Source: Chloroflexota bacterium | GTDB lineage: Bacteria > Chloroflexota > Anaerolineae > J102 | Assembly: GCA_013152585.1 (NCBI GenBank) | Contig: JAADGC010000177.1 | Coordinates: forward strand, 1-55,900 | DNA: 55,900 nt | Reading direction: 5' to 3' | Shown here: piece by piece, positions 2,858 through 54,019 of the stretch | Numbering within the stretch: the first letter of the stretch is position 1 | Layout: every line of letters begins with the position of its first letter | Position numbers and translations under genes: made by a program | The notes under the pieces: model-generated | What the model saw: only the letters and a program-made list of their open reading frames with translations | Told to the model about the DNA's origin: nothing | Database searches by the model: none

Positions 2858-2951
2858 GTCATTTTATAGCCGCAGATACCACCGTTTTCTGGCTGCATCC
2901 CTTTGATTCTGTGAGAACCTGTGGTTGAAATAGAAAAGTCGACTGTCCAGA

Positions 2952-3902
2952 TCAAAAGTCCAGTTTGAGCATTTGCCGCATGATCAGATAGCCGACCACT
3001 GTCATGAGTGTGGCTGTGATGGGGATGAGGATTGGCCAGCCGGGTTGAAACATACCCATCATGTATTCAGGATTGATGAGCATAAACACGGTGCCCAATA
3101 TGAAGGGCAGGGCCGTGAGAACGGTGCCCGACATGCGCTGTTCTGCGGTCAGCGTTTGGATCTCGCCATTGATGCGAATGCGTTCTAAGATAGTCTGGCT
3201 GATGCTCTGCATAACCTCTGCCAGGCTACCCCCCACTTCGTTCTGAATACGAATGGCAGTCACGATGAGCGCCAGATCATCGCTTTGCACACGGTCGACA
3301 AGGTGATTCAGGGCATCGTCAAGGCTATACCCCAACTGGGATTCTTTGATAACGCGACCGAATTCGGAGGCAGAGGGATCGGGCATTTCCTTGACGATGA
3401 TACTCAGGGCTTGTTGCAGGCCATAGCCGGCCTGCAGCGAGCTCACCATCAGGTTGAGCACATCGACCAATTGCGTATCGAACATTTTGCGGCGATTATT
3501 GCGGCGATTGCGTACATAAAGCTCGGGGACAACCCACCCGGCGATGGCGAGCAATATGCCTCCTAAGGGATTATGGGCAACGAGCCACCCCGCGGCCAGG
3601 CTCAACAAAACAATGGCCAGTCGTATGACCAGATATTCGTAAACGGTGACATGGAGCCCGGCTTGCAGCAACTGGTGACGAATTCCGCCGAAGTATTGCG
3701 TCTTGCTCAGACGCTGCTGGAGATCGTCCCGCCGCCCTGCCGTCGGTACTCCCCAGCCATCCATGTTGCCGCTCTGCATCGAGATCTCAAAGCGCTCGTC
3801 GATTTCGCGCGTCCACGTCAGCCATTTGTAGAGGCCAATGAGGACAAAAAAGATGGTGAAGGAGAAGATCAGTGATATGGCGACCAGAGGATTCAGGAAC
3901 AT
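2952..3902 (-). CDS. tadB: TadB-like T2SS-F-domain platform protein
   Basis: ATG preceded by an AAGGAGG SD. Motifs LQAGYGLQQALSIIVKEMPDPSASEFGRVIKESQLGYSLDDALNHL...EVGGSLAEVMQSIS, with terminal TM helices. Confidence 0.85.
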   Translation of the reverse strand: MFLNPLVAISLIFSFTIFFVLIGLYKWLTWTREIDERFEISMQSGNMDGWGVPTAGRRDDLQQRLSKTQYFGGIRHQLLQAGLHVTVYEYLVIRLAIVLLSLAAGWLVAHNPLGGILLAIAGWVVPELYVRNRRNNRRKMFDTQLVDVLNLMVSSLQAGYGLQQALSIIVKEMPDPSASEFGRVIKESQLGYSLDDALNHLVDRVQSDDLALIVTAIRIQNEVGGSLAEVMQSISQTILERIRINGEIQTLTAEQRMSGTVLTALPFILGTVFMLINPEYMMGMFQPGWPILIPITATLMTVVGYLIMRQMLKLDF

Positions 3903-3915
3903 GATATGGCCTCCT

Positions 3916-4623
3916 TTACGAAAGGGTGTGTGCTTGCTGCATCAAGACAAGCCAGGCGCCAAGCGCCAAATACGGTGCGTAGGCGATAGACTGTTTGGCA
4001 TGAATACGGCGTGTGACGAGGAGGACACCAGCGGCCACCCCGCCGGCGATGATCCCCAGAAGCAACGCGATGAGAACTTGGGGATAGCCTGTGACAAAAC
4101 CGATCCAGACGGCCAATTTGACATCGCCCATGCCCATGGCGCCGCGACCGATGACTGCCATCAGGCCAAAGAGGACCAGGCCGAGCAGGCTGCCTGCCAG
4201 GGCCATCGGCAAAGAGGGGAGCAAGCCCACCAGACTAAGGCCCACTAAAATGGGGGCCGACACAACCAACACCCGGTTGAGAACCAGATGATGATCGAGA
4301 TCAATGAGGGCGATCAGGAGCAGATAAAGGCCTATACCCGCCAGGGTGAGCTTTTGGGCCAGCGTGTCGGCAGAGGTGGCCTGCCATAAAACAGCAAAAC
4401 TTGCTATCCAGACGGCAAGAATGCGCAGGAGCCAACGGGTAGGGGGAAAACGGGATGGGTGGGAAGGGGGAGTTGGCCCCATGGGATCGCCATGGGAAGG
4501 CCACATCTGCTGCCAGGCACGGGACAGGTTTTGCGTTGTGGGCAGATAGTGCGCCATGAGATTGATCACAAGCGCTGCTATCAGGCTGATGAAAGAGAGG
4601 AAAAGAAGGGTGAGATTAGCCAT
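3916..4623 (-). CDS. tadV: A24-family prepilin peptidase (CpaA/TadV type)
   Basis: Polytopic membrane protein with IDLDHH and GRGAMGMGDVKL aspartate motifs. Its ATG overlaps the stop of the upstream tadZ-like gene (ATGGCTAA, 8-nt overlap). Confidence 0.8.
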   Translation of the reverse strand: MANLTLLFLSFISLIAALVINLMAHYLPTTQNLSRAWQQMWPSHGDPMGPTPPSHPSRFPPTRWLLRILAVWIASFAVLWQATSADTLAQKLTLAGIGLYLLLIALIDLDHHLVLNRVLVVSAPILVGLSLVGLLPSLPMALAGSLLGLVLFGLMAVIGRGAMGMGDVKLAVWIGFVTGYPQVLIALLLGIIAGGVAAGVLLVTRRIHAKQSIAYAPYLALGAWLVLMQQAHTLS

Positions 4624-5821
4624 GACGATTGAAGGCTATCGAGCCCAGATGAAAGGAACGGGATGATGTATTCGTGTCGGCTTCCTCAGTTTCTTCGGTG
4701 CGGGGAAGCAGCTTTTCGGCCATCTCGAAGATACCGCGGCTCAGGCGCGAACGGGGTTGGCTGAGGACAAAGGGAATACCGCTGTTCATGGCCAGGGTTG
4801 CCAGAGCGGGATCATGGGGTAGTTGTTGATAGATATCTTTGCCAAGGCGTTCCTTGATATACCGTTCGGAAATGCCGCCCGGCATTCCCAACTGGTTGAT
4901 CAGCAAATGCGGATCCACTTGCAGGTTTTCGTCGCCCTGGATAGTGTCAAATAGATCCAGGGCTCGACGTAAACTAGGCACCTCGGGGGTCGATACGATC
5001 ATCGTCATATCTGATTGGTCCAGTACTTCCGACAGTACCAGATCGGGCGTAGGAGCCGTATCGATGACCACGATGGGAGCCATTTCATTCACACGAATCA
5101 GGATCTGATTCCAGACTTCCTGGCTCAACTCGGCCATCTCACTCACATTGAGTGTATTAGAAAGCACATAGATACCGCTCTCGTGCTTCTGCAGCAAGGA
5201 TTTCACCATTCGGGTATCGACTTCGGCGGTATCGACCAGATCGTTGAGCGTATGCCGGGGCTGAATGTTTAGCATCAGGGCCAGATCACTAAGATTGTTG
5301 TGCGCTTCTACCAGAAACACATCTAACTTGCTAAGCTTATGAAAAGCCACTGCCAGATTGACGGCGACGGTGCTTTTGCCCACCCCACCTCTCAGCCCGG
5401 TGATGGCGACGCAAAGCGTGTGGTGGGATATTTGTGTTTCTTCGGTCTTATGGTCCAGCAGGATGCTTTTCACCACGGCAATAAACTCGGTCGCTACGAT
5501 GGGATGGCGCACGAAACCGCGGGTGCCTGCCAACATGGCGCGTTGTAATTCGCCAAAACGTTCGGGGGTGGCCAAAGCCAACAAGGGTAAGTCGGGCAAA
5601 GTCTTCGTGGCTTGTTCGATCAGGTGCAGAGCATCCAGGTTGGCCAGATCGATGAGAGCGAGATCAGCCCGCTGTTGCGCCAACGACGCCAGTTCGTATT
5701 TTCGGCCTACCTTGGCGATCACGCGCCAACCTTCGGTCTCGGCTACTCGCCGAATGGCATCGACCGTATCATAGTTGGAAGAAACGACTGCCAGGCGAAT
5801 GATTCGTGAAGACTTTTCCAC
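4616..5821 (-). CDS. tadZ: CpaE/TadZ-like pilus-assembly ATPase (atypical receiver domain plus MinD/ParA fold)
   Basis: The N-terminal domain is receiver-like but lacks the acidic DD pair (LAVVSSNYD...DLALIDL). A deviant Walker A follows (GLRGGVGKSTVAVNLA). GTG start 15 nt after the cpaB stop. Confidence 0.8.
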   Translation of the reverse strand: MEKSSRIIRLAVVSSNYDTVDAIRRVAETEGWRVIAKVGRKYELASLAQQRADLALIDLANLDALHLIEQATKTLPDLPLLALATPERFGELQRAMLAGTRGFVRHPIVATEFIAVVKSILLDHKTEETQISHHTLCVAITGLRGGVGKSTVAVNLAVAFHKLSKLDVFLVEAHNNLSDLALMLNIQPRHTLNDLVDTAEVDTRMVKSLLQKHESGIYVLSNTLNVSEMAELSQEVWNQILIRVNEMAPIVVIDTAPTPDLVLSEVLDQSDMTMIVSTPEVPSLRRALDLFDTIQGDENLQVDPHLLINQLGMPGGISERYIKERLGKDIYQQLPHDPALATLAMNSGIPFVLSQPRSRLSRGIFEMAEKLLPRTEETEEADTNTSSRSFHLGSIAFNRHG

Positions 5822-5836
5822 TATCCACGCACATCC

Positions 5837-6637
5837 TTAGGGTGAGACCAATATCTGATAGCGATCTATCAAATAGTTTTGATCGACGGGAACGGTTTGG
5901 GCAAGACCCTGGTTATCCGGTGCTCGTAAGGCCAGATCTAGTATGCCACCTATATCCAAGATATGTCGTAATACTAACGCATCTTGCAGGTCAACGGCAA
6001 TAAGGATGGATTGCTCGCTAGGCTTATCCGTGCGGAAGGTGCCGCTTTCATCTGCGCTACCAGCCGCGGTTTTATCGGGGTTGAGCTGTTTGGGAATAAT
6101 GATGGCGTGGACTTCGACGTCTTGCAGGGTGGCAATGCTTTCATCCTGGCTACCAGAACCACCGGCGACAGTCAGTTCAGCGGAAAAGGTGCCAATGATG
6201 TCGATGTGATCGCCAGGCCGAACCAGACGATTGCTGAGGAGTACGGAATCCATCTGCACCGCCATGACGACCTTATTTTCGGGCACCGACAGAGCCAGTT
6301 TCCGGGTGACGATATCCGGCGTCACCAATTTAGGGATCATGAGCGGCTCTCCGGCCAGAATCGTCTCGCCGGACATTTTTCCCAGGACCTGATCCATGTT
6401 GGTGGCAGCGCCAGCGGGCACTGTATCCACAGGGAATTTTTTCAATTGCAGTTCATTTTGGGTGATGGAACGACGTGAGGGGATGTCGGTGGCAGCCACC
6501 ACTACGAACTGGCTCACCAGAGACTGATCGCCATTGTCGATGGGGGCGGCTGTCGTCAGCGTCTGATAGGTGACAAGCCCGGCCAGGGCTGCCAGGATGA
6601 CAGCTCCGATCCACCAGATAAAGCCAGTTGATTTCAT
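5837..6637 (-). CDS. cpaB: CpaB/RcpC-like Flp pilus assembly protein (N-terminal TM, SAF-like domain)
   Basis: AAGGAGA SD. MKSTGFIWWIGAVILAALAGLV TM helix, then VVVAATDIPSRRSITQNELQLKKFPVDTVPAGA...GEPL, typical of the CpaB SAF plus RcpC regions. Confidence 0.8.
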   Translation of the reverse strand: MKSTGFIWWIGAVILAALAGLVTYQTLTTAAPIDNGDQSLVSQFVVVAATDIPSRRSITQNELQLKKFPVDTVPAGAATNMDQVLGKMSGETILAGEPLMIPKLVTPDIVTRKLALSVPENKVVMAVQMDSVLLSNRLVRPGDHIDIIGTFSAELTVAGGSGSQDESIATLQDVEVHAIIIPKQLNPDKTAAGSADESGTFRTDKPSEQSILIAVDLQDALVLRHILDIGGILDLALRAPDNQGLAQTVPVDQNYLIDRYQILVSP

Positions 6638-6651
6638 TGCAGGTATTCTCC

Positions 6652-7587
6652 TTACTTACTGATGTACAGGATCGAAATGCCATAGTCGCCGTCATCGTCA
6701 TCGCCTACTTCGCCATCTGTCTTGATGGTTTGAATAAAATAGCCTTCGATCCATTTGTGACAACCATGGAAATTAAACCCCGTGAGGACAAATTCGGCAA
6801 AGCCACAGACCTGGTAGGTGGCGTTATTGCCATTGCCGCTAATACTACTGTACAGGGGGATCGTGACATGATGGCCCATCCATGTGTTGAGAGCAGATAT
6901 AACCTGACTACTGCCCTTCACGCCAGGAGCACTGGGGACGGCATCGCCAATATGCCAATAGCCGCTATTGGAAGGATGTAAAATATTATCGGCCAACTCG
7001 GGGGTGCTGGGAGAACCGCCGTTCCAATCCAGCCAACCAAAATTGCCGTGGCCATCCGAGTCGTGATCATCGCCTCCATGTCCCCCTCCATGTCCCATGC
7101 CTCCTGATTCTTTTTCCCACAGGGTGTAGGTCTCGCCGGGCGTGCGCTCTGCGCACGGGGCAGTCATGGGCAACATATTGTCGGCGCTGGCGGCGACGCC
7201 ATACGCGGCCTCGCTCACAGCTCGGGCCGTCATCGTGTTCATGCCAAATAGCTTGGCAAAAGCAGTATCGAAGGTTTCTTCAGCCTGCACTTCGATTGCC
7301 TTCCCACTTTGCGTAAACTGCCAGCTCACCTCTTCGGCACCATTAAGAGTGGCAAATTTGTTGATTTCGTTTTGGATCACCGAATTGCTGCCTCCCAGGG
7401 CAGCCATTCGTGCTCCTGCCAGTGCGGCGGCATCAGCAGCATTCTGCATGCGCCGTTGCTGGACATAGGCGTTACTCCCATCAAGGGCAATCGCCCCAAA
7501 ACCCAAAATCACTACTAAAAAAAGGGCAAAATAGACGAGAATAGAGCCTTGTTCAGGATGGTTGTTTACAATCTTTTGCGTATACAT
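6652..7587 (-). CDS. TadG-like (Tad N-terminal domain) minor pilin / pilus-associated protein with a His/Gly/Asp-rich insert
   Basis: GGAGGAA SD. The N-terminus EQGSILVYFALFLVVILGFGAIALDGSNAYVQQRRMQNAADAAALAGA has the TadE/TadG-like pattern. Internal GMGHGGGHGGDDHDSDGHGN tract. Confidence 0.7.
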   Translation of the reverse strand: MYTQKIVNNHPEQGSILVYFALFLVVILGFGAIALDGSNAYVQQRRMQNAADAAALAGARMAALGGSNSVIQNEINKFATLNGAEEVSWQFTQSGKAIEVQAEETFDTAFAKLFGMNTMTARAVSEAAYGVAASADNMLPMTAPCAERTPGETYTLWEKESGGMGHGGGHGGDDHDSDGHGNFGWLDWNGGSPSTPELADNILHPSNSGYWHIGDAVPSAPGVKGSSQVISALNTWMGHHVTIPLYSSISGNGNNATYQVCGFAEFVLTGFNFHGCHKWIEGYFIQTIKTDGEVGDDDDGDYGISILYISK

Positions 7588-40009: not shown

Positions 40010-40822
40010 TCATTGTAATTCATCACGAAGAACTCTATAAAACTTATCTTTCGCCTGTCGTTCGATCCAAGGCGTGTGTCCGCAGTTCCTGAGCAGGATG
40101 AACCGAAAGCCCTTGAGAGTAGCAGACAGAGGCTTTTGCACCCCTTCAGCCGGATGGGGATCGTAGTCTCCGTGAATCGCAATAACCGGACATTTGATTT
40201 GTTTTCCGAGTTCCAGAAGCTCCCCGCTCCTTCTCAACTCCGCCGCCTCCTTCCACACGCCCTGAAAGATATCACCCTGACTACCGACCAAACCGGATTC
40301 TTCTAATTCGGCTATGATTGGATCATACTCGTCGGTTTTTGAAGCTAATGCTCCAAGCCGCGCAAATAACGTGTCTTTATCCACGGTCGCAGGATCCGTT
40401 AAAGCCCTGATGGTAGACTCAAACTCTGTTCTTTCTTCTTCACTGAGACGGCTTAACCTGGTCTTTTGAAGTCTCGCAACATACTTCTCTTCATAGGGGC
40501 CACTGCTGACAAGGATCAGCTTCTTGATGATGGTGGGATAATGAGCAGCAACGATAAAACTGAGCCAGGCTCCCCAAGAAAAACCTATCAAGGTGACAGG
40601 AAGGTCTCCGTAGTTTTGCAGAACTGTTCTTAACTCCTCGACCTGTCCTTTAAGTGATGTCGCTGTTTGAATCGGTTCCAATACACCCCAGCCGGACGCG
40701 AGTCTACGGGCTACTGGGGCCATCTCTCCGCCGGCACCTGGTCCTCCGTGAATGACTGCAATTTTGCAGGATTCTTTTCCATATGTTCGTAAATTTTTCA
40801 ACTTTTCTTTATGCGTTTGCAA
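40010..40822 (-). CDS. Alpha/beta-fold hydrolase (proline-iminopeptidase-like)
   Basis: HGGPGAGG oxyanion-type motif, nucleophile elbow GFSWGAW, late HGDYDPH and GHTPW. The start is a TTG and the next in-frame ATG is 33 codons in. G+C is visibly lower than in the flanks. Confidence 0.75.
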   Translation of the reverse strand: MQTHKEKLKNLRTYGKESCKIAVIHGGPGAGGEMAPVARRLASGWGVLEPIQTATSLKGQVEELRTVLQNYGDLPVTLIGFSWGAWLSFIVAAHYPTIIKKLILVSSGPYEEKYVARLQKTRLSRLSEEERTEFESTIRALTDPATVDKDTLFARLGALASKTDEYDPIIAELEESGLVGSQGDIFQGVWKEAAELRRSGELLELGKQIKCPVIAIHGDYDPHPAEGVQKPLSATLKGFRFILLRNCGHTPWIERQAKDKFYRVLRDELQ

Positions 40823-44427: not shown

Positions 44428-44880
44428 TTATGACGAGTGGTCGGCGGCTGCCCGGGCAACGGCGGACCGCTGCTGATCGAGAAAGGCCTGCAGAAAAACG
44501 GCGGCGGCTACGTCATCATTGTGTCTTTTTTTGCCACCGGGTTTGCGGGGACGGTTTTGTTGCAAAATCTGATCGGCGGCAAAGGAGCTGAGCCGTTCAT
44601 CGACAAATTGCATGGGCAAAGGTACGTGCGTGATGAGCTGTCTGGCATAATTGCGCACACGCTTGGCCTGAGGCCCTTCGCTGCCATCCATGTTGTAGGG
44701 CAGGCCGACCAGCAGGGCATCGGCGCCTTCGTGAGCGGCCACTCGGGCAATCTCGGCAGCATCGGCGCGCTTGCTACGGCGTACGACGATGCTGTGCGGC
44801 CGCGCCAGCCAGGCGGCGCTATTGCCCACCGCCAGACCGATGCGTTTGTCGCCTATGTCCAGGGCCAACCAGGTTGTCAT
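44428..44880 (-). CDS. ruvX: Putative pre-16S rRNA nuclease / Holliday-junction-resolvase-like RuvX (YqgF)
   Basis: WLALDIGDKRIGLAVGN...ALLVGLPYNMDGSEGPQAKRVRNYARQL...FVDERLSS. Confidence 0.85.
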   Translation of the reverse strand: MTTWLALDIGDKRIGLAVGNSAAWLARPHSIVVRRSKRADAAEIARVAAHEGADALLVGLPYNMDGSEGPQAKRVRNYARQLITHVPLPMQFVDERLSSFAADQILQQNRPRKPGGKKRHNDDVAAAVFLQAFLDQQRSAVARAAADHSS

Positions 44881-44893
44881 GAATCAGATGCAC

Positions 44894-46462
44894 TCAGGGC
44901 GATTGCAGCACGAGGACGCGTATGCGGGTGGGGATGGTGGGCAAACGGCCGAGCCAGTTGGGTTCGAGCGTGATCACGGGCGGTTGTTCCAGGGCAAAGG
45001 CCTCTTGCAGGCGCCGGGAAGCAGCATGCAAAGGCACGCCCGCCAGCAGCGTCCGCACTTCGTTGACCTTGATGGGGACGAGCGTGTCGGCGCTGGCCGT
45101 GAGGGTCATGTCGACGGCCTTATCGCTAAAGCGCACAAAGGTGGGCGAACTGACCTGGATGGTTTCTTCCAGGAAAAAATGGTCGGCGGGAATGCTTTCG
45201 CGCAGGGAGCGTTCGACCAATGCCTGAGCACTGGTCACATCCACGGCCAGGCCTCGGGCCAGCAGTTGCAGTTGTAGCCCCAGGACATCGGCATGTTCAC
45301 CGGCAAAACGATCGTAGGTTTCGGCCAGGGTGAAGGTGCGTACGGTCTCGGGTGGGATCGCTTCCCCCTGCTGCAGGCTCTCGCCCAGGCGCGTATAAGC
45401 CTGTTGTTGTAATGCGGCCTGCAGCTTGCCCAGCAGGCGCTCTTTGTCGGCGGCGGTGACCACGGCCACCGGTTCGACCGTGCCGCCGGCCGTGGGGCTT
45501 TCGTTGCTAACCCGCAGCGAGAGGTTGAGCGGACCTTCGATCTCGTTGATGGTGAGGGCGGGGATGTTGCCTTTACGACCGGGCTTGACAGCCTCGATGA
45601 GAGCGTTGGCGCTCTGGCCAATGCCGGCCGTCACTGTGACGGCCTCGGTGATGCGAAAGCGCACATTATTGCCCGTGGTGGTGCGCAGGATGGTGGCCGT
45701 CGGCACCACGATCTCACGGCTGCTACGATTGATGAAGCGCACAATGCCGGTGGCTTTGCCCACTGGGGCTTCTTCCACGCCGGTGGTGGCGATGGTGTCA
45801 AAGGCTTCGACACGGGTCTGCACGTTGCGGGCGGGCACCAACAGGTTGAAATAGGAGGCGTTTTCGATGCCGACACGGGCCGTGATTTGCTCGGAGCTGA
45901 CAAAACGGGTGCGGGCGGGCACCAGCGTGACCGTTGCTTGCGGAATCAGCAGCACTGCCGCGCCTGCCGCCAGCCCTGCGATGACCACCAACAACAAAAG
46001 GTATCCCAGTGCCACCAGCCATACAGATCGTTTTTTGCGACGGGTGCTGCCCACAAGGATGGTTTTGTGAGGCAATGTGACGATGTCTGGAGCGTGGAGA
46101 CCAAGGCCTACGTCTGGTGGGGGAGAGGCTACCAGGGGTCGGACAGTGGCCGGGGAAGGCAGGGCTGGCGGGGCCGGTGGATAACGCCAGCGACGACTGG
46201 CCCTGGCGACCTTGCGAAAGGTGGGGATGCGGGCAGCGCGGGCATGATAGCGGACATCGGCATCATCTGTGACCAGACCGACTTGCACGCCCAAGGCGTC
46301 TGCCTGACGTCGCAGGGTTTGCAGGCGCACGACATGTGCCAGTTCATCCACCTGTGTGGGCAGTATGAGAAGCACCTGTGCACCCGGCTGAGCCTGCCGC
46401 AAAGCAGCCACTGCTGCAGCCAGGGTGGCGGGGGCATTCAATTGTACTTGATGTGGGGTCAT
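44894..46462 (-). CDS. Hypothetical single-pass membrane protein with a large extracytoplasmic beta-rich region
   Basis: Cytoplasmic about 140 aa (QVLLILPTQVDELAHVVRLQTLRRQADALGV), TM VWLVALGYLLLLVVIAGLAAGAAVLLI, then about 350 aa with no motif I recognise. It is tightly packed between alaS and ruvX. Confidence 0.6.
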   Translation of the reverse strand: MTPHQVQLNAPATLAAAVAALRQAQPGAQVLLILPTQVDELAHVVRLQTLRRQADALGVQVGLVTDDADVRYHARAARIPTFRKVARASRRWRYPPAPPALPSPATVRPLVASPPPDVGLGLHAPDIVTLPHKTILVGSTRRKKRSVWLVALGYLLLLVVIAGLAAGAAVLLIPQATVTLVPARTRFVSSEQITARVGIENASYFNLLVPARNVQTRVEAFDTIATTGVEEAPVGKATGIVRFINRSSREIVVPTATILRTTTGNNVRFRITEAVTVTAGIGQSANALIEAVKPGRKGNIPALTINEIEGPLNLSLRVSNESPTAGGTVEPVAVVTAADKERLLGKLQAALQQQAYTRLGESLQQGEAIPPETVRTFTLAETYDRFAGEHADVLGLQLQLLARGLAVDVTSAQALVERSLRESIPADHFFLEETIQVSSPTFVRFSDKAVDMTLTASADTLVPIKVNEVRTLLAGVPLHAASRRLQEAFALEQPPVITLEPNWLGRLPTIPTRIRVLVLQSP

Positions 46463-46509: not shown

Positions 46510-49218
46510 TCAGGAAGGGAGCTGTTGGGCGATAGTGGCCGTGGCCGCGGCCAAGGCGGCGTCAAGCTTGCCGATGTCGCGACCGCCAGCCTGCGCCATG
46601 TCGGGACGGCCGCCGCCACCGCCGCCAATGATCGGCGCCAGCGCCTTCACCAGATTGCCGGCATGGGCGCCGCGTTGCACGACATCCTTGGTGGTGGCTG
46701 CCAGCAGCATGGGTTTATCGTTGAGCACGGCGCCCAACACGACGATGCCCGAGCCCAGTTTGCTGCGCAGATCGTCGGCCATGATCCGTAGATCGTGAAC
46801 ATTGGCTGCCTGCACCCGGGTGACGATCACGGGCACACCGGCCACATCGACTGCCTTTGCCACCACTTCGCGGGCCTGCTGGGCGATGAGTTGCTGGCGC
46901 AGCTTTTGCAATTCCCGATTCATGGCACTGAGATGATCCTGAAGCTCCTGCACTTTTTGGGGCACCGTCTGCGGCGACACATGCAACTCGCGAGCGATAT
47001 GTTCGAGGGTGGAGATATGATCGAGGGCGTAGGCTTCGGCGCCAAAGCCGGTCACCGCTTCGATACGGCGCACGCCGGCCGACACAGAGCCTTCGCCGGT
47101 GATGATGAATGACCCAATCTGGGACGTATTTTCGACATGGGTGCCGCCACACAGCTCATAGCTCCAGGGGTTGTCTTCGCTGCCCACGCGCACGGTGCGC
47201 ACGATATCACCGTATTTTTCGCCAAACAGGGCTGTCGCCCCCTCTTGCAGGGCCTCTGCCAGGGGCTTCGATTGGATGTGCACGGGATAATGGCTGAGGA
47301 TGGCCTCGTTCACGCTGTCGGTGATCTGGCGCAGCTCGTCTCCGGTCAGCGCCGCATCATAACGGAAGTCGAAGCGCAGTCGGTCGGGAGCCACCAGGGA
47401 ACCCGCCTGCTCGACATGCTCGCCGAAGAGATTCCGCAAGGCGCGATGCAGGAGGTGCGTGGCCGTGTGATTGCGCATAATGTCCCAGCGGCGGCGACTA
47501 TCGACGTGCACTGTGACCGCTGCTCCCACCTGTGCCCGACCGCCTTGTATTCGAGCACGATGCAGGATCAGGCCGGGAATGGGGCGGCGCACGTTGAGCA
47601 CTTCGGCCCGCCAGTTCTCGCCTTCGATCTCGCCGGTGTCGCTCACCTGACCGCCCGATTCGATATAAAAAGGCGTCTCGGCCAGGATCAAATCCACTTC
47701 CTGTCCGGCGGCAACGGTTTCTACCAGCTTGTCATGGGCCAGAATACCTAACAGTTGGGTGGTACGGCTGTGGGAACCATAGGGATCCTGACGGATACCG
47801 CTGTCGGGCAGGAAGCCCCGACGTTGCAAGGCTGCAAAGGCGGCGGTATAGACCTCGCTGCCCTGGGCATAGATGGCTTCGTTCAGGCGTCCCTGGCTGG
47901 TGCGGCGATGGGTGGCGTCGGCTTGCAGATAACCGGCCTCGTCCACCGTGTAGCCGCGTTCCTGGCAGATGTCGCGAGTGACTTCGAAAGGCAGGCCGTG
48001 GGTGGATTTGAGATCGAAAGCGGTTTTGCCCGCCAGAATGCGCACACCCCGGGCATCCAACTCGGCCAAAGCGCGTTCCAGCTCCACCAGCGCCCTATCC
48101 AGGGTGACGATAAACTGTTCCTCTTCCTGAGTGACGATGGTTTCGATCCATTTGCGGCGCTGGGGCAATTCGGGATACACATTGCCCATCTTGGTGATGA
48201 CTGCATCACACACGCGGGCGATAAACGGTTCGGTGAAGCCGATTTTGCGGCCAAAACGATGTGCGCGACGAATGACCATGCGCAGGACATAGCCGGGACC
48301 GTTGGCGCCGGGACGCACACCGTCGGCCACTAAAAAGGCCGCCGCCCGGGCATGGTCGGCGATCACGCGATAGCCCACCTGATACTGCCGGCGTTGGGCA
48401 TCGCTGTGCCCCAGCAACGCCTGCAGATGCGCCATGATCGGCACAAATAGATCGTTATCGTAATTGACCGGCGTATTCTGTACCACGCTGACGATGCGCT
48501 CCAGGCCCATGCCCGTATCTACGCCGGTCTTGGGCAGGGGCGTGCGCTTGCCGGTGGCGTCTTGATTGAACTGCATGAACACCAGGTTCCAGATTTCCAG
48601 CCAACGGTCGCAGCCGTTATCGAGCAATACCGAACAATCGGGATCGCCACAGGTGCAGGCTTCGGCGCCCCAATCGTAGTGGATCTCGCTGGTGGGGCCA
48701 CAGGGCCCGACATCGCCCATAGACCAGAAATTGGTCTTATCGTCCATGCGATACACACGATCGGGATCGATGCCCATGTATTGCGTCCAGATGGCAAAGG
48801 CCTCGTCGTCGTCCTTGTACACGGTGTAGACCAGGCGGTCGTGGTCGAGGTTGACGACGGTGGTGAGAAATTCGTAAGCAAAGCGACTGGCGTCCCGTTT
48901 GAAATAGTCGCCAAAACTGAAGTTGCCCAGCATCTCGAAGAAGGTGTGATGTCGGGGAGAGGGCCCCACATTCTCGAGATCGTTGTGTTTGCCGGAAACA
49001 CGCATACACTTCTGGGAAGTGGTGGCGCGGGTGTAGGGGCGTTTTTCCAGGCCCAAAAAAACATCTTTGAATTGCACCATGCCGGCATTGGTCAGCAGCA
49101 GGGTGTCGTCGTTGTACGGGATCAGAGAAGAGCTGGGAACACGTTGGTGCCTTTGCTCCTCGAAATAGTCGAGGAAAGCCTGGCGGATTTGTTCGCTGGT
49201 AGTTGGGTGCATAGTCAT
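46510..49218 (-). CDS. alaS: Alanine--tRNA ligase
   Basis: FFEMLGNFSFGDYFK, the editing-domain HTATHLLH and a C-terminal GGGGGGRPDMAQAGG. The track start at 49233 is a TTG; in-frame ATGs lie at 49218 and 49212. Confidence 0.9.
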   Translation of the reverse strand: MTMHPTTSEQIRQAFLDYFEEQRHQRVPSSSLIPYNDDTLLLTNAGMVQFKDVFLGLEKRPYTRATTSQKCMRVSGKHNDLENVGPSPRHHTFFEMLGNFSFGDYFKRDASRFAYEFLTTVVNLDHDRLVYTVYKDDDEAFAIWTQYMGIDPDRVYRMDDKTNFWSMGDVGPCGPTSEIHYDWGAEACTCGDPDCSVLLDNGCDRWLEIWNLVFMQFNQDATGKRTPLPKTGVDTGMGLERIVSVVQNTPVNYDNDLFVPIMAHLQALLGHSDAQRRQYQVGYRVIADHARAAAFLVADGVRPGANGPGYVLRMVIRRAHRFGRKIGFTEPFIARVCDAVITKMGNVYPELPQRRKWIETIVTQEEEQFIVTLDRALVELERALAELDARGVRILAGKTAFDLKSTHGLPFEVTRDICQERGYTVDEAGYLQADATHRRTSQGRLNEAIYAQGSEVYTAAFAALQRRGFLPDSGIRQDPYGSHSRTTQLLGILAHDKLVETVAAGQEVDLILAETPFYIESGGQVSDTGEIEGENWRAEVLNVRRPIPGLILHRARIQGGRAQVGAAVTVHVDSRRRWDIMRNHTATHLLHRALRNLFGEHVEQAGSLVAPDRLRFDFRYDAALTGDELRQITDSVNEAILSHYPVHIQSKPLAEALQEGATALFGEKYGDIVRTVRVGSEDNPWSYELCGGTHVENTSQIGSFIITGEGSVSAGVRRIEAVTGFGAEAYALDHISTLEHIARELHVSPQTVPQKVQELQDHLSAMNRELQKLRQQLIAQQAREVVAKAVDVAGVPVIVTRVQAANVHDLRIMADDLRSKLGSGIVVLGAVLNDKPMLLAATTKDVVQRGAHAGNLVKALAPIIGGGGGGRPDMAQAGGRDIGKLDAALAAATATIAQQLPS

Positions 49219-49542
49219 TTGTTGCTGAAGCAAGATAGACGGAAGGTCGTCGAATGGTCATTGCAAAATTTTATTCTACCGTCGATAGGGTCTGGGGTCA
49301 AACATGAGATCAGTTCGGGGTGCATCCCAGAATTTTGGGTGGGATTTGTGTTCTTCAGTTTTTGCTGCGCCGCCGAGCGCCAGCGTTGTCGTCCTTCTCT
49401 GCTCCTGTGTAGGGGCTGACGAATAAACTAGCGCAAAGGATCGTTTCAATGAATCCCACCGTTCATCTGCAGGTCACTAGCACAAAAATTAAAAATTCAT
49501 GAAAAAAGTGCATCTTTTTTCTGTCAATCTTATTTTCTCAAA

Positions 49543-49558
49543 TGTGATCTTAATCATA
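49543..49558. promoter_or_regulatory. CRP/FNR-family-like palindromic site
   Basis: TGTGA tcttaa TCATA versus the CRP consensus TGTGA-N6-TCACA (9 of 10 half-site positions). Centred at 49550.5 inside the AT-rich region. Confidence 0.4.
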
Positions 49559-49579
49559 CAACAATGAGAGTAAAGAGAG

Positions 49580-49585
49580 TATAAT
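49580..49585 (+). promoter_or_regulatory. Candidate -10 hexamer for the cytochrome gene
   Basis: TATAAT. No good -35 at 17-nt spacing, where the CRP/FNR-like site overlaps instead. Confidence 0.35.
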
Positions 49586-49699
49586 AAATTGTTTGTACTA
49601 TTATGTTGTGTGCAGGCAGATAATTTCACTGCAATATTCAGGTTCATGCATCCTCTGCCATGTTTCGCCCTTCGTTTCTGTGTTCAAGGAGTAAAACCT

Positions 49700-51922
49700 A
49701 TGAGGAAAGTCCTGCTCAGTACCGCCGCATTACTACTGGTCATAATGATTCTTGTGGGGGGAAGAGCCCAACAAGTTAACGCTGATGTACCAGGGGGCAT
49801 CTGCCCAGATAATCTGCAGCAAGATGGCTTGTCGTCGCCAGGGAATCCGTTCTCTGAACAGATCTTTTTACCCTTCCAACTATCGCCCTGTGGCCCTCCC
49901 GTTGTGATTCCTTTCTATGATCAGTGGGCGACCTCCGGGCACAACAACACCGCAGCCGCAGCTTTCCACCATTGGGATGCAGAGGGTGAAATTTCCACTT
50001 CCTGCGCCAAGTGCCACAGCTCGTGGGGCTACATGGACTTTCTGGGAGTTGACGGCAGCGCCGCCGGCGTTGTCGACAAAGCAGCTCCTATAGGATCGAC
50101 CATCGAGTGCGCTGCCTGCCACAATGACGCCACTCTGCAATTGACCAGCGTTACCTTCCCCTCAGGCGAAACCGTCAATAATCTGGGTGACGAATCCCGT
50201 TGTATGGTGTGCCACCAGGGGCGTGAATCCAAAGTCAGCGTCGATCAATACATTGTCGACAAAGGCGCTGACGCGGATGTCGATGCCGTCACAGCCGGCA
50301 TGAGCTTCCGCAATATCCATTACTTTGCTGCCGCAGCCACCCAGTATGGCACCCTTGCCAAGGGCGGCTACGAATATGATGGGATGGCCTACGACCTGAA
50401 ATTCCAGCATGTGCCGTCTTACGATCAGTGCATTGAATGCCATGATCCACACACGCTGCAAGTACAGGTCAATGAGTGTGCCACTTGTCACACTGCTGTG
50501 ACCACTGTGGAAGACCTGAAAGATGTGCGTATGAATGGGTCAAAGGTCGACTACGATGGCGATGGCAATACGACAGAAGGCATGTACTATGAGATAGCCG
50601 GGCTGCAAGAAAAGCTCTACGCCGCCATTCAGGCCTATGCCACCGAGATCAGTGGTACGCCCATTGTCTACGATGGGAGTTCGTATCCTTATTTCTTTAT
50701 CGACACCAATGCCAATGGCCAGCCGGATCCTGGCGAAACCAACTACGGAAACCGCTATAACGCCTGGACGGCGCGTCTGCTGAAGGCTACATACAACTAC
50801 CAGGTTTCCGTCAAAGATCCCGGCGCCTTCGCCCACAATTCCAAGTACATCATCCAGCTTCTGCATGATTCGATTGCCGATCTCAACACGATGCTCAGCA
50901 CGCCGGTTGATCTGTCCGGCGCCCATCGCAATGATGTTGCTCACTTCGCTGGCAGTACGGCCCCCTTCCGCCATTGGGATGGCGATGGTGAGGTGCGAGG
51001 AAGTTGCGCTCGCTGTCACAGCAGTGAAGGCATACCTACCTACCACAAGGAAGGCGTGACTATCTCAGCCCCGACCACCAATGGCTTCATGTGCTCCACC
51101 TGCCATGCCAACGTGGGCGGTGATTGGGCCCGCTACGTATTCGATGACGCTACCTTCCCCAGCGGCGCCACCGCAACCTTCGGCGCTGGTGAAGATGACA
51201 ATCTGTGTATGCAATGCCACCAGGGTCGTGAATCAGGCGTGAGCGTGGCCGATGCCATTGCCGGCAAAGATGTCGATACCGTCGCTGCGGACTTGCGCTT
51301 CATCAATGTCCATTATCTGGCGGCCGGCGCCACGCTATTCGGCAGCGATGTAACGGGCATGTATGAATACGCAGGTAAGAGCTACAATGGCCGGAACATC
51401 CATGTGGCTCCGTTCGATCAGTGCACCGAGTGCCATGGTACCCACGGGCTGCAAGTCAAGTGGGACGCCGTAGGGCTGAACTGCTCGACATGCCATCCTG
51501 TTGTAACCTCGGCCGATAAATTGCACGATATCAGGTGGGCAACCACGCCGGATTACGATGGTGACGGCAATACCACAGAGGGAGTCGCTGGCGAAATCCA
51601 AACCATGGAAGTTGCGTTGTATACAGCGATACAAGCTTACGCCGTGGCTACCCCTGGTGCCGATCCCATCATTTACAGCCCCACCTCCTATCCCTATTTC
51701 TTCAAGGACACCGATGGTAATGGTGTGGTTGATCCGGGTGAGGCGGTCTATGGTAACAGATATAAGACCTGGACACCACGACTCTTGCGTGCCGCTTATA
51801 ACTTCCATTATGTTATGAAAGATCCTGGTGGTTTTGCGCACAACAGCAAGTACATCGTCCAGACTCTCTTTGATACCCTCGACGATATGGGAGTTGATGT
51901 CTCTGGCATGACACGCCCCTAA
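49700..51922 (+). CDS. Secreted decahaem c-type cytochrome built from two tandem 5-haem modules
   Basis: AAGGAG SD 8 nt upstream of the ATG at 49700. Signal peptide MRKVLLSTAALLLVIMILVGGRAQQVNA. Ten CxxCH motifs: CAKCH, CAACH, CMVCH, CIECH, CATCH, CARCH, CSTCH, CMQCH, CTECH, CSTCH. The track ORF from 49589 is an extension. Confidence 0.85.
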   Translation: MRKVLLSTAALLLVIMILVGGRAQQVNADVPGGICPDNLQQDGLSSPGNPFSEQIFLPFQLSPCGPPVVIPFYDQWATSGHNNTAAAAFHHWDAEGEISTSCAKCHSSWGYMDFLGVDGSAAGVVDKAAPIGSTIECAACHNDATLQLTSVTFPSGETVNNLGDESRCMVCHQGRESKVSVDQYIVDKGADADVDAVTAGMSFRNIHYFAAAATQYGTLAKGGYEYDGMAYDLKFQHVPSYDQCIECHDPHTLQVQVNECATCHTAVTTVEDLKDVRMNGSKVDYDGDGNTTEGMYYEIAGLQEKLYAAIQAYATEISGTPIVYDGSSYPYFFIDTNANGQPDPGETNYGNRYNAWTARLLKATYNYQVSVKDPGAFAHNSKYIIQLLHDSIADLNTMLSTPVDLSGAHRNDVAHFAGSTAPFRHWDGDGEVRGSCARCHSSEGIPTYHKEGVTISAPTTNGFMCSTCHANVGGDWARYVFDDATFPSGATATFGAGEDDNLCMQCHQGRESGVSVADAIAGKDVDTVAADLRFINVHYLAAGATLFGSDVTGMYEYAGKSYNGRNIHVAPFDQCTECHGTHGLQVKWDAVGLNCSTCHPVVTSADKLHDIRWATTPDYDGDGNTTEGVAGEIQTMEVALYTAIQAYAVATPGADPIIYSPTSYPYFFKDTDGNGVVDPGEAVYGNRYKTWTPRLLRAAYNFHYVMKDPGGFAHNSKYIVQTLFDTLDDMGVDVSGMTRP

Positions 51923-51957
51923 CCCATCCCGACACCACATCCTTCATCTTACACGAC

Positions 51958-51990
51958 AAGCAGGGCGCCGGAGCGCCCTGCTTCCTTTTT
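51958..51990 (+). terminator. Rho-independent terminator after the cytochrome gene
   Basis: AAGCAGGGCGC cgga GCGCCCTGCTT followed by CCTTTTT. Confidence 0.85.
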
Positions 51991-52009
51991 CGTTGGGCTT
52001 TTCATCTAC

Positions 52010-54019
52010 TCAGGCGTTTGATTGTGCTCTGGCCTGTACTACTTCTTGCCACGCGCGCAGGACCTCGGCTACACTCCAGGCCTGGGCAATGCAGCCGCGG
52101 GGGCTGTAGGGGGCATCGCCGTCGAAGATCTCGCTGACGCTGCCCATACCGTGATCTGCCAGATGCTGGAAAAGCGGCTGCAGGAAGGTGGCGGCTTGTT
52201 CGGGGTCCTGGTACACCCGCAGGTGGGCGCTGACAAATGGCCCTATCAACCACGCCCACACCGTGCCCTGATGATAAGCGGCGTCGCGCAGGCGCTGGTC
52301 GCCACCGTAGTGCCCCTGATACTGGGGGTGGTTCGGCGCCAGGCTGCGCAGGCCGTGCGCTGTCAATAACTCGCGGGCACACACATCTACCACGGCCCTC
52401 TGCTGCCGGGAAGTGAGCGGGCTGTGGGGCAAAGAGACGGCCAGTAATTGGTTGGGGCGCAGGCTGGCGTCGGGGCCGCCGGCACCATCGATCACATCGT
52501 AGCAATAACCGCCTTCCTCGTACCAAAAGCGCTGGAATTGCTGCTGCACCTGCATGGCAGCGGTGAGAAAATCCTGTTGCTGCCGCGCATAACCCAGGCG
52601 TTCGGCAAATTCGGCCATGATGTGCAGGGCTTGATACCACAGGGCGTTGATTTCCACGGGCTTGCCCACGCGCGGGGTCACCACCCAGTCGCCGACCTTG
52701 GCGTCCATCCAGGTCAGTTGCACGCCCGGTTCGCCCGCATACAGTAGCCCATCGGCCGCGTCCACATGGATGAGATGTCGCGTGCCACGGCGGTGCCAGG
52801 AGATGATGTCGTTGAGCACGGGGTAGAGATCGGAGATGAGGGCGAGGTCGTCGGTGGCGTGCAGGTAGGCACGCAGAGCCACGAAATACCACAAGGTGGC
52901 GTCCGCAGTGTTGTACTCGGGGGCTTCGCCGGCATCGGGAAAGCGATTCGGCAACATGCCATGATCTACGTAGCGGGCGTAGGTGCGTAAAATGCTGGCA
53001 GCCACCTGGGGCCGGCCGGTGGCCAGGGTCAGCCCGGGAAGGCTGATCATGGTATCGCGGCCCCAATCGCCAAACCAGGGATAGCCGGCAATGAGCGAAT
53101 GGCCTTGTTCGCGGCCCGACCGTGAGCGGCAGACGACGAATTGATCCGCCGCCAACAGCAGTTGCCGGATCGCTGCCGGTGCCGACGCCAATTCGGGCGG
53201 AGCCTGCGCCAACAACTGCCGGTCCGCGGCCTGCCGCCTTCTTAGCGCTTCGTTGCCGTCCAGGATGGGAGCTGCCTCGGTGCTGGCCACCAGGGTCAGG
53301 GTCTGGCCCGGCTGCAAGACGTGCTCGACCGTGGCCGTGTGCAGATACGATTCGTACGCCGGCAGGCCGCGGTAGGCCTCCATCTGTAGATAATAATCGT
53401 AGTACCATTCGTGGGCTGCGGTTATAGCCGCATCGGCGCTGAGCAGATAGAAGGGAGTTGCCTGTTCGTACGCCTGCACGCTCAGGCCATGCGCCACCGC
53501 CTGCGTGTGCATGAGCAAATCGGGGGAGGTGCTGCCATGGTGGTCGCGATAGGTGGTCAGTAATTTCAGCGCCAGATGCACGGGCCCGGAGGCGCGCAGG
53601 AGGCGATATTGGATGGTGGTGGTATTGGCATCGGGCTGCATCCAGATGCGTTTTTCCAACAGAGCATCGGCACAGCCATAACGCCACACGGGTACCGAGC
53701 CTTCGAGACCAAAATACTGGATGTAGTGATAGCCCAATGGTTCGATGCGGCCGCTGGCCCAATGGTTGGCGAAAAGGGGATACGAGTGCCCATGCACCGT
53801 GAGCGTTTCGTCGATTTTGGCCAGCATTAGCACGCGTTTGACCGGGGGATCGAGCGCCGCCACCAAATAGCCATGATAACGCCGCGTGGGAATGCCGCAC
53901 AAGGTGCCCATGGCGTAGCCGCCCAGGCCGTTGGTCACCAGCCATTCGTTGCGGCCACCGCTGGAAACATCGGCACCGACGGCACATCCATATGTGATTC
54001 TCTGGTCACTATTTTGCAT
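52010..54019 (-). CDS. Amylo-alpha-1,6-glucosidase-family glycogen debranching enzyme (GDE N- and C-terminal domains)
   Basis: EWLVTNGLGGYAMGT, GYPWFGDWGRDTMISLPGL, WMDAKVGDWVVTPRVGKPVEINALWY, GTVWAWLIGPF. The ATG at 54019 was chosen. Confidence 0.8.
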   Translation of the reverse strand: MQNSDQRITYGCAVGADVSSGGRNEWLVTNGLGGYAMGTLCGIPTRRYHGYLVAALDPPVKRVLMLAKIDETLTVHGHSYPLFANHWASGRIEPLGYHYIQYFGLEGSVPVWRYGCADALLEKRIWMQPDANTTTIQYRLLRASGPVHLALKLLTTYRDHHGSTSPDLLMHTQAVAHGLSVQAYEQATPFYLLSADAAITAAHEWYYDYYLQMEAYRGLPAYESYLHTATVEHVLQPGQTLTLVASTEAAPILDGNEALRRRQAADRQLLAQAPPELASAPAAIRQLLLAADQFVVCRSRSGREQGHSLIAGYPWFGDWGRDTMISLPGLTLATGRPQVAASILRTYARYVDHGMLPNRFPDAGEAPEYNTADATLWYFVALRAYLHATDDLALISDLYPVLNDIISWHRRGTRHLIHVDAADGLLYAGEPGVQLTWMDAKVGDWVVTPRVGKPVEINALWYQALHIMAEFAERLGYARQQQDFLTAAMQVQQQFQRFWYEEGGYCYDVIDGAGGPDASLRPNQLLAVSLPHSPLTSRQQRAVVDVCARELLTAHGLRSLAPNHPQYQGHYGGDQRLRDAAYHQGTVWAWLIGPFVSAHLRVYQDPEQAATFLQPLFQHLADHGMGSVSEIFDGDAPYSPRGCIAQAWSVAEVLRAWQEVVQARAQSNA

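Follow-up and report, generated by a model that had tools for sequence, protein, structure and literature searches.

A two-module decahaem cytochrome of an uncultured Chloroflexota bacterium: a candidate outermost component of extracellular electron transfer, encoded by a gene that behaves as an exchanged cassette

The cytochrome gene and its product

The 55.9-kb stretch of DNA analysed here (contig JAADGC010000177.1, positions 1–55,900, hereafter the window) comes from a Chloroflexota bacterium and carries on its forward strand, at 49700–51922, the coding sequence of a 740-amino-acid c-type cytochrome with ten haem-binding motifs. It lies between alaS on one side and a gene for a glycogen-debranching-type enzyme (GDE, with GDE_N and GDE_C domains) on the other, neighbours that had been named in a preliminary description of the sequence and that our open reading frame (ORF) and domain scans bear out. 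The gene is real, intact and selectively maintained, and its product is an ordinary member of a sequenced but uncharacterised family. The reading that we favour, and consider probable rather than assured, is that this exported ten-haem protein transfers electrons at the outermost point of an extracellular electron transfer chain, the other members of which have their genes elsewhere.

The ORF as listed runs from 49589 to 51922, and the start codon that this frame would offer, a TTG at 49589, was rejected because it has no Shine-Dalgarno sequence and lies only a few bases from the predicted transcription start; the ATG at 49700, which does have a Shine-Dalgarno sequence, is preferred and yields 740 amino acids, as many as the closest homologues have. 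CxxCH motifs number exactly ten and lie at residues 102, 137, 168, 244 and 260 and again at 436, 465, 503, 575 and 595, with spacings of 35/31/76/16 in the first set and 29/38/72/20 in the second, and no CxxCK or long-spacer haem motif occurs in the 740 residues. Among the 22 cysteines of the protein, two (C35 and C63) are extra to the haem motifs. Residues 1–29 (49700–49786) form a putative signal peptide or N-terminal anchor, consisting of MRK, a hydrophobic helix and a VNA|D site at which cleavage is predicted. They are followed by what would be a flexible tether (residues 30–67, 49787–49900), in which C35 and C63 are conserved solely in the subgroup of the window protein; the predicted local distance difference test score (pLDDT) is below 50 over residues 20–66.

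Two modules, module 1 at 49901–50911 and module 2 at 50912–51919, make up the remainder, each with five CxxCH motifs, a long helix, a beta-hairpin and two more helices. When aligned to each other with the boundaries used in the preliminary description they match end to end at 47% identity (BLASTP E 5e-98), and the gene contains direct DNA repeats about 1000 nt apart that derive from this internal duplication. The preliminary description had therefore read the gene correctly in its length, its signal peptide (a charged start, a hydrophobic helix and the VNA|D site), its ten motifs and its internal tandem duplication, and the sequence motifs that it listed as common to both modules are all present, most of them invariant or nearly so in 60 homologues. 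Its remark on haem density holds in one half only: at ~74 amino acids per haem the protein is far sparser than MtrA, but the contrast drawn with OmcA-type proteins does not stand, since MtrC has 671 and OmcA 735 amino acids and their density is about equal to that of the window protein.

Each module also contains two Asp/Gly-rich loops. The first is a DxDxDG-type loop, DYDGDGNTTEG, at residues 284–294 (50549–50581), with a module 2 counterpart at residues 618–628 (51551–51583); D284, G289, E293 and G294, together with D618, G623, E627 and G628, are invariant in the 60 homologues. The second is EF-hand-like, DTNANGQPDPGE at residues 335–346 (50702–50737) and its counterpart DTDGNGVVDPGE at residues 670–681 (51707–51742), with the consensus D-x-[DN]-x-N-G-x-x-D-x-x-E, in which D335 and D670 are invariant and G340, E346, G675 and E681 are at least 90% conserved. 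The loops show an Asp/Asn-x-Asp/Asn-x-Asp/Asn-Gly pattern with a downstream acidic ligand and plausibly bind calcium; the strict PROSITE EF-hand pattern, compared by eye with residues 284–296 and 670–682, fits neither. Measured against its two closest alleles, the coding sequence has a ratio of nonsynonymous to synonymous substitution (dN/dS) of 0.12–0.14, so that the gene is under purifying selection.

Size, distribution and architecture of the family

The preliminary description had called the gene an orphan, a label that the database searches remove. Among 5.8 billion clustered proteins more than 5000 matched at 90% clustering, hundreds of them full-length homologues of 660–760 amino acids at 55–68% identity, and HMMER, run exhaustively against 1.84 billion representatives at 50% identity, gave 426 clusters of homologues at E<=1e-30. 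The family is found mostly in uncultured Chloroflexota and Aminicenantes; homologues that carry a name come mostly from Anaerolineae and other Chloroflexota assemblies and are labelled 'hypothetical' or 'cytochrome c3 family protein', with a single 'OmcB'. A scan of species-representative genomes that used peptide patterns of the window protein, and is not exhaustive, found the family solely in metagenome-assembled genomes, belonging to Ardenticatenaceae, Caldilineaceae, Anaerolineales, Aminicenantes, Planctomycetota, Myxococcales and other groups.

Ten CxxCH motifs are present in all but one of 59 aligned homologues, and the module also occurs in other numbers. Complete single-module members of ~360 amino acids have a signal sequence, five CxxCH motifs, the DxDGDG loop and the same C-terminal '...RP' ending; members with 15 haems occur at two of the compared loci, which are designated here by L numbers (L022 and L032); and longer members reach 1000–1290 amino acids, many of them with Big_2 domains. 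Among the homologues compared, the most distant excepted, module 1 is 46–63% identical to the module 1 of other proteins, whereas modules 1 and 2 are 34–50% identical to each other, so that the duplication must be ancient and must have preceded the family's spread. A lipobox cysteine and, after it, a low-complexity linker (EVTRVVEV... or CPECPEC..., for example) characterise most homologues, an arrangement that would suit a protein held away from the membrane; the subgroup of the window protein has instead a site of the signal-peptidase-I type and the two conserved cysteines.

With several CxxCH motifs, an export signal and hidden Markov model (HMM) matches above cut-off, the window protein is in generic terms a multihaem c-type cytochrome. 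The matches are to PF14522 (Cytochrome_C7; 50.1 bits, cut-off 24.8), PF14537 (Cytochrom_c3_2; 36.6 against 25) and PF02085 (Cytochrom_CIII; 33.7 against 22.9), all of them models of the c3/c7 kind that cover short stretches of haem motifs rather than the whole architecture. Paired_CXXCH_1 (PF09699; 12.0 bits against 20.6) and TIGR01905 (9.5 against 25.2) stay below cut-off, and no NCBIfam model passes its cut-off for the window protein. Neither phmmer nor an hmmsearch with the 60-sequence family profile found a cytochrome match better than E 7 among PDB sequences, and the matches that were obtained, chance ones of zinc-ribbon-like character, were discarded. With generic Pfam matches, no NCBIfam model passed and no sequence relative in the PDB, the earlier statement that the architecture belongs to no recognised named family is sustained. 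Database labels, and a literature check that is incomplete, suggest that this large, unnamed family is uncharacterised. The kind of protein is already known, that is, the outer-surface multihaem cytochrome of extracellular electron transfer, and the architecture appears to be an undescribed variant of it.

Predicted structure and haem ligation

An AlphaFold2 model built on a 60-sequence alignment (pLDDT 85.6; predicted template modelling score 0.81) shows an N-terminal helix at residues 2–19, a disordered tether at residues 20–66 and two equivalent units, in each of which a haem region poor in regular structure leads into a long helix, then a hairpin, then a pair of helices; the structural models contain no haems. 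The best Foldseek matches in the PDB are OcwA, at the top (6I5B; E 2.8e-3, probability 1.0, template modelling (TM) scores 0.23/0.34, root-mean-square deviation 7 Å), and OmhA (6QVM; E 0.14), the S-layer undecahaem cytochrome of Carboxydothermus. Lower in the ranking, all at E>1 and mixed among unrelated proteins, come octahaem nitrite reductase (ONR), MccA and NrfA, the last with E-values above 6. Module 2 modelled alone again finds OcwA first, though without significance (E 1.4), and reaches a lower pLDDT of 72.9, with its N-terminal 75 residues poorly modelled; packing probably requires both modules together.

OcwA of Thermincola potens and OmhA of Carboxydothermus ferrireducens are surface terminal reductases of monoderm bacteria with iron-reducing roles (PMC6703420, PMC7829351), and they fall in clade 3 of the NrfA/c554/octahaem superfamily, which has a three-helix bundle (PMC6703420, PMC7829351, PMC9250108). 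They are the sole meaningful fold matches to the model of the window protein, which may likewise place a three-helix bundle after a globular haem domain (PMC6703420), and like them the window protein would be exported to the outside of a bacterium without a classical outer membrane, where a role in reducing extracellular acceptors has been proposed for both (PMC6703420, PMC7829351). In contrast, no sequence homology between them and the window protein is detectable, even with the family profile; they have 9 or 11 haems assembled from c554-like and NrfA-like parts, whereas the window protein has ten in two duplicated modules; and the conserved DxDxDG-type loops belong to the window protein. OcwA and OmhA also have two five-coordinate haems (PMC9250108), whereas the window protein has histidines for an all-bis-His arrangement. 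Given the weakness of the match, we take OcwA and OmhA as the nearest known shape and not as the family of the window protein.

Across 37 homologues from several phyla, the non-motif His 81, 207, 237, 251 and 379 of module 1 are invariant, as are the module 2 equivalents His 415, 538 and 714, with His 568 and 582 partly conserved; in 60 closer relatives all ten are invariant or nearly so. These conserved histidines suffice in number to give every one of the ten haems a bis-His ligation, a pattern more in keeping with electron transfer than with catalysis. A sixth non-motif histidine per module, H91 and H425, lies within F(H/R)HWD and is nearly invariant, and it may leave room for an open haem of the OcwA kind.

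It is here that a catalytic role has to be weighed, in which the protein would be a multihaem enzyme of the NrfA/octahaem reductase/OcwA superfamily, each module an NrfA-like pentahaem unit with its helical bundle, that uses a five-coordinate haem to reduce or oxidise a small soluble substrate, for instance nitrite, hydroxylamine, sulfite or tetrathionate. Like NrfA, each module has five haems followed by long helices, the spacing of the CxxCH motifs within a module resembles that of NrfA, and the only multihaem fold matches besides OcwA and OmhA are the low-ranking ONR, MccA and NrfA, all at E>1. Three helices end each module as they do in NrfA and OcwA (PMC6703420), OcwA itself reduces nitrite slowly (PMC6703420), and OcwA and OmhA have five-coordinate catalytic haems with a non-bonding distal histidine (PMC9250108), a part that H91 and H425 could play. 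We nevertheless think a catalytic role quite unlikely. The CxxCK active-site motif of NrfA is missing, and no model for NrfA, ONR or octahaem tetrathionate reductase (OTR) passes its threshold, the best being an NrfB-like model at 23.5 bits against a cut-off of 184. No sequence relation to the solved enzymes emerges, family profile included, and the query-normalised TM-scores to enzymes are 0.11–0.21. The five invariant non-motif histidines per module can ligate all five haems, and the homologues have other genomic partners than NrfA, adjoining porins, MtrA-like proteins and quinol-oxidase modules rather than NrfH or NrfBCD-type operons.

Genomic partners of the homologues

The functional argument for an outer-surface electron-transfer protein draws on the surroundings of its homologues, for which the ORFs of 43 homologous loci were clustered. 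Fourteen Aminicenantes loci have a fixed order of a ~285-amino-acid decahaem protein of the DmsE/MtrA family, a ~620-amino-acid haem-free protein and the homologue. The decahaem protein scores 177 bits against TIGR03508 (E 3.6e-52), slightly under the 192-bit cut-off, and the haem-free protein matches outer-membrane beta-barrel families (DUF2490 in eight of nine cases, OMP_b-brl in six of nine, Porin_4 in three and MtrB_PioB in one). On the strength of these matches the layout is that of a putative porin-cytochrome conduit, with the family in the role of MtrC. The porin-like protein (L028, 8004–9866, and its equivalents) also has a weak match to the NCBIfam model 'GSU2204 family CXXCH-containing (seleno)protein' (E 1.2e-8), and its MtrA-like neighbour scores 159 bits against the 'GSU2203 family decahaem' model, under the 325-bit cut-off; the two matches point to a possibly related, little-studied gene pair in Geobacter sulfurreducens.

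The likeness to MtrC, OmcA, MtrF and UndA of Shewanella extends to the ten haems at ~70 amino acids per haem, the duplicated combination of a pentahaem and a haem-free part, the lipoprotein anchoring seen in most homologues of the window protein and, in the 14 Aminicenantes loci though not at the window copy, an adjacent MtrA-family decahaem protein and beta-barrel porin. The differences are considerable. The window protein has no match at E<=1 to either TIGR03507 or PF22113, the models of MtrC/OmcA and of MtrC/MtrF domains II and IV, although PF22113 is listed for some homologues in precomputed domain lists. The haem-free parts of MtrC are the beta-barrel domains I and III, whereas those of the window protein appear in our model as helices with a hairpin and form no beta-barrels, so that the four-domain layout of MtrC (beta-barrel I, pentahaem II, beta-barrel III, pentahaem IV) is absent from the model, and no MtrC-family structure is among the Foldseek matches. 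The gene order is C-A-B in Shewanella against A-B-C in Aminicenantes. The resemblance is probably convergent. A further parallel is offered by the conserved, sequence-divergent porin-multihaem clusters of uncultured Acidobacteriota and Verrucomicrobiota, proposed on the basis of gene order and predicted structures (bioRxiv 10.64898/2026.05.27.727921), which combine an MtrA-like protein, a porin and OcwA-like or MtrC-like cytochromes; the loci discussed here differ in belonging to Chloroflexota and Aminicenantes, and the window copy stands outside any cluster.

In Chloroflexota the neighbours are of another kind. In at least seven Anaerolineales loci the homologue is followed by a membrane-anchored nonahaem cytochrome and a cytochrome b561; six of these seven add a NapC/NirT-like heptahaem protein and, on the opposite strand, NrfD, and most of the six also carry a 4Fe-4S protein exported by the twin-arginine translocation (TAT) pathway together with an octahaem protein. 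In loci of Ardenticatenaceae and Caldilineaceae an octahaem protein, a 14- or 15-haem protein and a cytochrome b561 precede the homologue. A histidine kinase and a LuxR-type response regulator lie directly upstream of the cytochrome cluster in L020 (7418–9631, reverse strand) and equivalently in L007, L015 and L041, which suggests a possible second layer of regulation in those Anaerolineales and Chloroflexota loci.

A proposed mechanism and its alternatives

These neighbours make an extracellular redox role, which the preliminary description had already put forward, the best reading of the window protein, and we infer localisation, direction of electron flow, partners, calcium binding and binding of a regulator in what follows. 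The protein is the product of an ancient duplication of a unit of ~330 residues, each copy with five haems, a domain of three helices and a hairpin and two Asp/Gly-rich loops. It would be exported by the Sec pathway, its haems being attached outside the cytoplasmic membrane, and the N-terminal helix and ~40-residue flexible tether would hold it on or near the cell surface. Electrons would arrive from quinol-oxidising cytochromes of the membrane, encoded elsewhere in the genome, and would pass along a chain of haems that are mostly or entirely bis-His until they reach an extracellular acceptor, for example humic substances, a partner cell or an Fe(III) or Mn(IV) mineral. A regulator of the CRP/FNR family, bound at about -41.5, would be needed for transcription. 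In the host lineage the gene with its own promoter and terminator behaves as an exchangeable cassette, one allele having been swapped for a divergent one by recombination.

Several points weigh against this picture. No gene for cytochrome maturation, a porin, a quinol oxidase or a partner cytochrome is found among the scanned ORFs of the 55.9-kb window (the preliminary description had already noted that maturation, porin and partner genes were absent next to the cytochrome gene), so that the chain is assumed rather than seen, and the functional argument depends on gene neighbourhoods outside the phylum and family of the host. OcwA is matched weakly, with TM-scores of 0.23–0.34 and an E-value of 1.4 for the single module. 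His 568 and His 582 are conserved in just 51–68% of the distant homologues, and the non-bonding distal histidines of OcwA and OmhA mean that histidine counts cannot exclude an open haem. The window protein is without the lipobox of most homologues and so could be released rather than tethered. Finally, we found no experimental study of any member of the family in a literature search that is incomplete.

Some of these points can be read in favour of an electron carrier with another assignment, either one working in the reverse direction, taking up electrons from Fe(II), minerals, cathodes or syntrophic partners, or a diffusible shuttle or store of charge. Conduits of the Mtr type run both ways, as MtoAB and PioAB do (PMC5566968), and the Chloroflexota isolate Ardenticatena maritima performs both anodic and cathodic electron transfer (PMC5808234); the cleavable-looking VNA|D signal without a lipobox would allow release, and the gene is encoded alone, without a dedicated partner. 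Sequence, however, sets no direction of flow, and the NrfD, 4Fe-4S protein, cytochrome b and NapC/NirT-like neighbours occur in both types of chain, while the tether-like linkers of most homologues favour attachment over free diffusion. We regard such a role as rather unlikely, though better placed than a catalytic one, and retain outward transfer at the cell surface as the reading to be preferred.

A conserved CRP/FNR-type box and other expression signals

A conserved box of the CRP/FNR type upstream of the gene is a finding new to this analysis. The putative operator, TGTGA-N6-TCAtA, lies at 49543–49558 on the forward strand (centre 49550.5); the window copy, TGTGATCTTAATCATA, has one mismatch to the palindrome TGTGA-N6-TCACA. 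A predicted -10 hexamer TATAAT occupies 49580–49585. In three diverged alleles, those of the window, L044 and L046, the same elements recur with identical spacing, CAAATGTGA-N6-TCATA, then 21 nt, then AGTATAAT, while the sequence between box and -10 has diverged among the alleles and the L046 upstream region taken whole is unalignable. The -10 hexamer puts the predicted transcription start at about 49592 and the operator centre at about -41.5, the position of a class II activator, and we therefore predict that the gene is controlled by a regulator of the CRP/FNR family. On the window alone the box is not significant (two matches against 1.28 expected), but upstream of the homologues TGTGA-N6-TCACA with at most one mismatch occurs in 8 of 19 loci, with nine sites against ~1.2 expected, and in each of the eight box-bearing loci the homologue is not immediately preceded on its strand by another cytochrome gene. 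A generic sigma-70 scan did not report the proposed promoter, so the promoter rests on the conserved footprint.

The preliminary description had credited the gene with its own Shine-Dalgarno sequence, an AT-rich upstream region and a strong terminator, and all three are borne out. The Shine-Dalgarno sequence AAGGAG (49686–49691, forward strand) lies 8 nt before the ATG and is kept in L044 and L046, and an intrinsic terminator on the same strand (51958–51993) comprises a hairpin at 51958–51983, with an 11-bp stem containing eight G-C pairs and a 4-nt loop, and a T-run; it falls inside the stretch common to the window and L044. A hidden RNA element in leader or gene was considered and rejected: Rfam gave no match at E<=1 in 49200–52100, and the predicted 5' leader is no more stably folded than shuffled versions of it (z = 0.57).

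Exchange of the gene as a cassette

The preliminary description had proposed that the gene was horizontally acquired and self-contained. Composition, on which it leaned, is no proof. The gene is lower in G+C than its flanks, as had been said, at 54.7% (not the ~50% first estimated) against 60.3% in alaS and 62.0% in GDE, and its G+C at third codon positions (GC3) is 0.61 against 0.72–0.74 in the flanks; among 32 window genes, however, its G+C has a z of only -1.2, and several genes, the alpha/beta-hydrolase and Tad pilus genes described below among them, are as low or lower. We accordingly set composition aside as proof of transfer, and it becomes informative only when the family's other loci are brought in. 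At 17 of these the gene is in most cases near its flanks in G+C (within 3 points in 13), while in the window and L046 it is ~3 to 7 points under the flanks, and in L044 it is 51%, like its surroundings.

It is comparison with relatives that upholds the proposal. The alaS gene places the host in uncultured Chloroflexota related to Caldilineae, and in L046, a near-identical relative, the genes follow one another as in the window, alaS being 98% and GDE 94% identical at the protein level and the flanks 94–98% identical as DNA. The L046 cytochrome gene, which occupies the same site, reaches only 85% identity in protein and 76–86% in DNA, and 49309–49675 does not align to L046 at all. Synonymous divergence (dS) from L046 is 0.73 for the cytochrome against 0.10–0.20 for five flanking genes, while the dN/dS of the cytochrome (0.12) is much like that of the flanks, a combination that marks replacement of the allele by recombination and not fast adaptive change. 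The closest allele is instead that of L044/L045 (88% in protein), in an unrelated genomic context. DNA similarity to that allele is confined to 49480–51987 on the forward strand, a stretch that takes in the gene with its terminator and promoter region and has a nucleotide identity of 86.8%; the genes on either side of it in L044/L045 are unrelated. The gene behaves as an exchanged cassette in which one allele has been replaced by a divergent one, a finding that is likewise new here. No terminal direct or inverted repeats and no transposon-like ends were found around the cassette, the only real repeats being those of the internal duplication.

At L044/L045 the cassette is flanked on one side by a DUF4405 membrane protein resembling a b-type cytochrome and a DUF2202 protein, and on the other by UbiA, a protein of the FGE-sulfatase family and a Crp-family regulator. 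The DUF4405 protein might be the native membrane partner. The DUF2202 (ferritin-like) and DUF4405 genes of L044 (5740–7368, reverse strand) are transcribed divergently from the cytochrome, and the Ni_hydr_CYTB cytochrome b beside the homologue in L001 has a weak, sub-threshold match to DUF4405 that hints at a link between both.

The site itself lies at a break in gene order marked by alaS (46510–49233). The run alaS, Baseplate_J-like gene, RuvX and YceG is kept in L046 and L049, and the other side of alaS is variable, with the cytochrome and GDE here and HSP20 in L049. In L048, the next alaS relative (82%), the site has neither cytochrome nor GDE and holds a PIN/PhdYeFM toxin-antitoxin pair, an 88-amino-acid alaS fragment and a DUF234 ATPase. 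About 170 bp of the intergenic region between alaS and the cytochrome gene (49309–49479) align with neither L046 nor L044 and carry no recognised feature, and they may be the remnant of a recombination junction. A gene that stands alone amid housekeeping genes, at a break in gene order where a relative has a toxin-antitoxin pair and an alaS fragment, and whose allele has been replaced by recombination, could also be a functionless passenger, cut from its operon by recombination and now decaying. We hold this to be highly improbable, since the dN/dS of 0.12–0.14 is similar to that of the flanking housekeeping genes, the ten CxxCH motifs and all conserved histidines are intact, the box, -10 hexamer, Shine-Dalgarno sequence and terminator are conserved over three diverged alleles, and L046 retains the gene at the same site.

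Significance for electron transfer in Chloroflexota and Aminicenantes

Sediments, aquifers and bioreactors harbour abundant Aminicenantes and Chloroflexota, among the latter Anaerolineae and Caldilineae in particular. Both groups have repeatedly been suspected of extracellular electron transfer, and to our knowledge no terminal reductase for the process has been identified in either group. The family, which is widespread and conserved, is a concrete candidate for that missing enzyme in both groups; it comes with a predicted regulatory site and a confident model, and could join the marker sets for iron and electron-transfer genes. Ardenticatena maritima, the sole electroactive isolate studied, has no cytochrome with more than seven haems (PMC5808234). 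For the window itself the finding is modest, that of one ordinary member of a sequenced, unstudied family without visible partners.

A wider proposal, which we offer tentatively and would not call probable, is that the family is a new structural class of outer-surface decahaem cytochrome, made of two pentahaem units each with a calcium-stabilised helical domain and convergent with MtrC/OmcA, that it would serve as a general terminal reductase of monoderm Chloroflexota filaments and as the MtrC equivalent in Aminicenantes conduits, and that it may be traded as a single-gene cassette. As a plug-in outer module it could pass between strains as one gene with its own CRP/FNR-controlled promoter, and if so, the trade in cassettes would tune which extracellular acceptors a lineage can use. 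Exchange of this sort accords with a view in which the outer-surface cytochromes form the end of the pathway that changes fast and can be swapped; for Geobacter, one paper reports raised mutation rates and diversity of multihaem cytochromes (PMC12977616).

Other features of the window

The genes around the cytochrome in the window are housekeeping ones: Tad pilus genes, topA, dprA, relA/spoT, mutS, a GT4 glycosyltransferase, yceG, alaS, GDE and a NUDIX hydrolase, and ruvX was assigned through synteny with L046. Between ruvX and alaS, at 44894–46462 on the reverse strand, lies a gene for a 522-amino-acid protein with a weak Baseplate_J-like domain, in the same position in L046 and L049; a phage-baseplate-like fold is odd in this housekeeping context. 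At the junction of RuvX and the Baseplate_J-like gene the comparison with L046 has an indel-rich patch (44701–45000) with 62% identity and 161 gap columns, while the rest is 94–98% identical. The preliminary description had also mentioned a secretin-less pilus encoded in the same cell; nothing connects the cytochrome to the Tad genes ~42 kb off. This Tad/Flp-type set (1235–7587, reverse strand) encodes two T2SSF-domain proteins, a ParA/CpaE-like ATPase and a TadE/G-like protein, with no secretin among the scanned ORFs, and its G+C of 0.52–0.58 is under the window mean. The strongest compositional outlier of the window, much further from the mean than the cytochrome gene, is an alpha/beta-hydrolase gene at 40010–40822 on the reverse strand, with a G+C of 0.485 and a GC3 of 0.469 against a window mean GC3 of 0.68.

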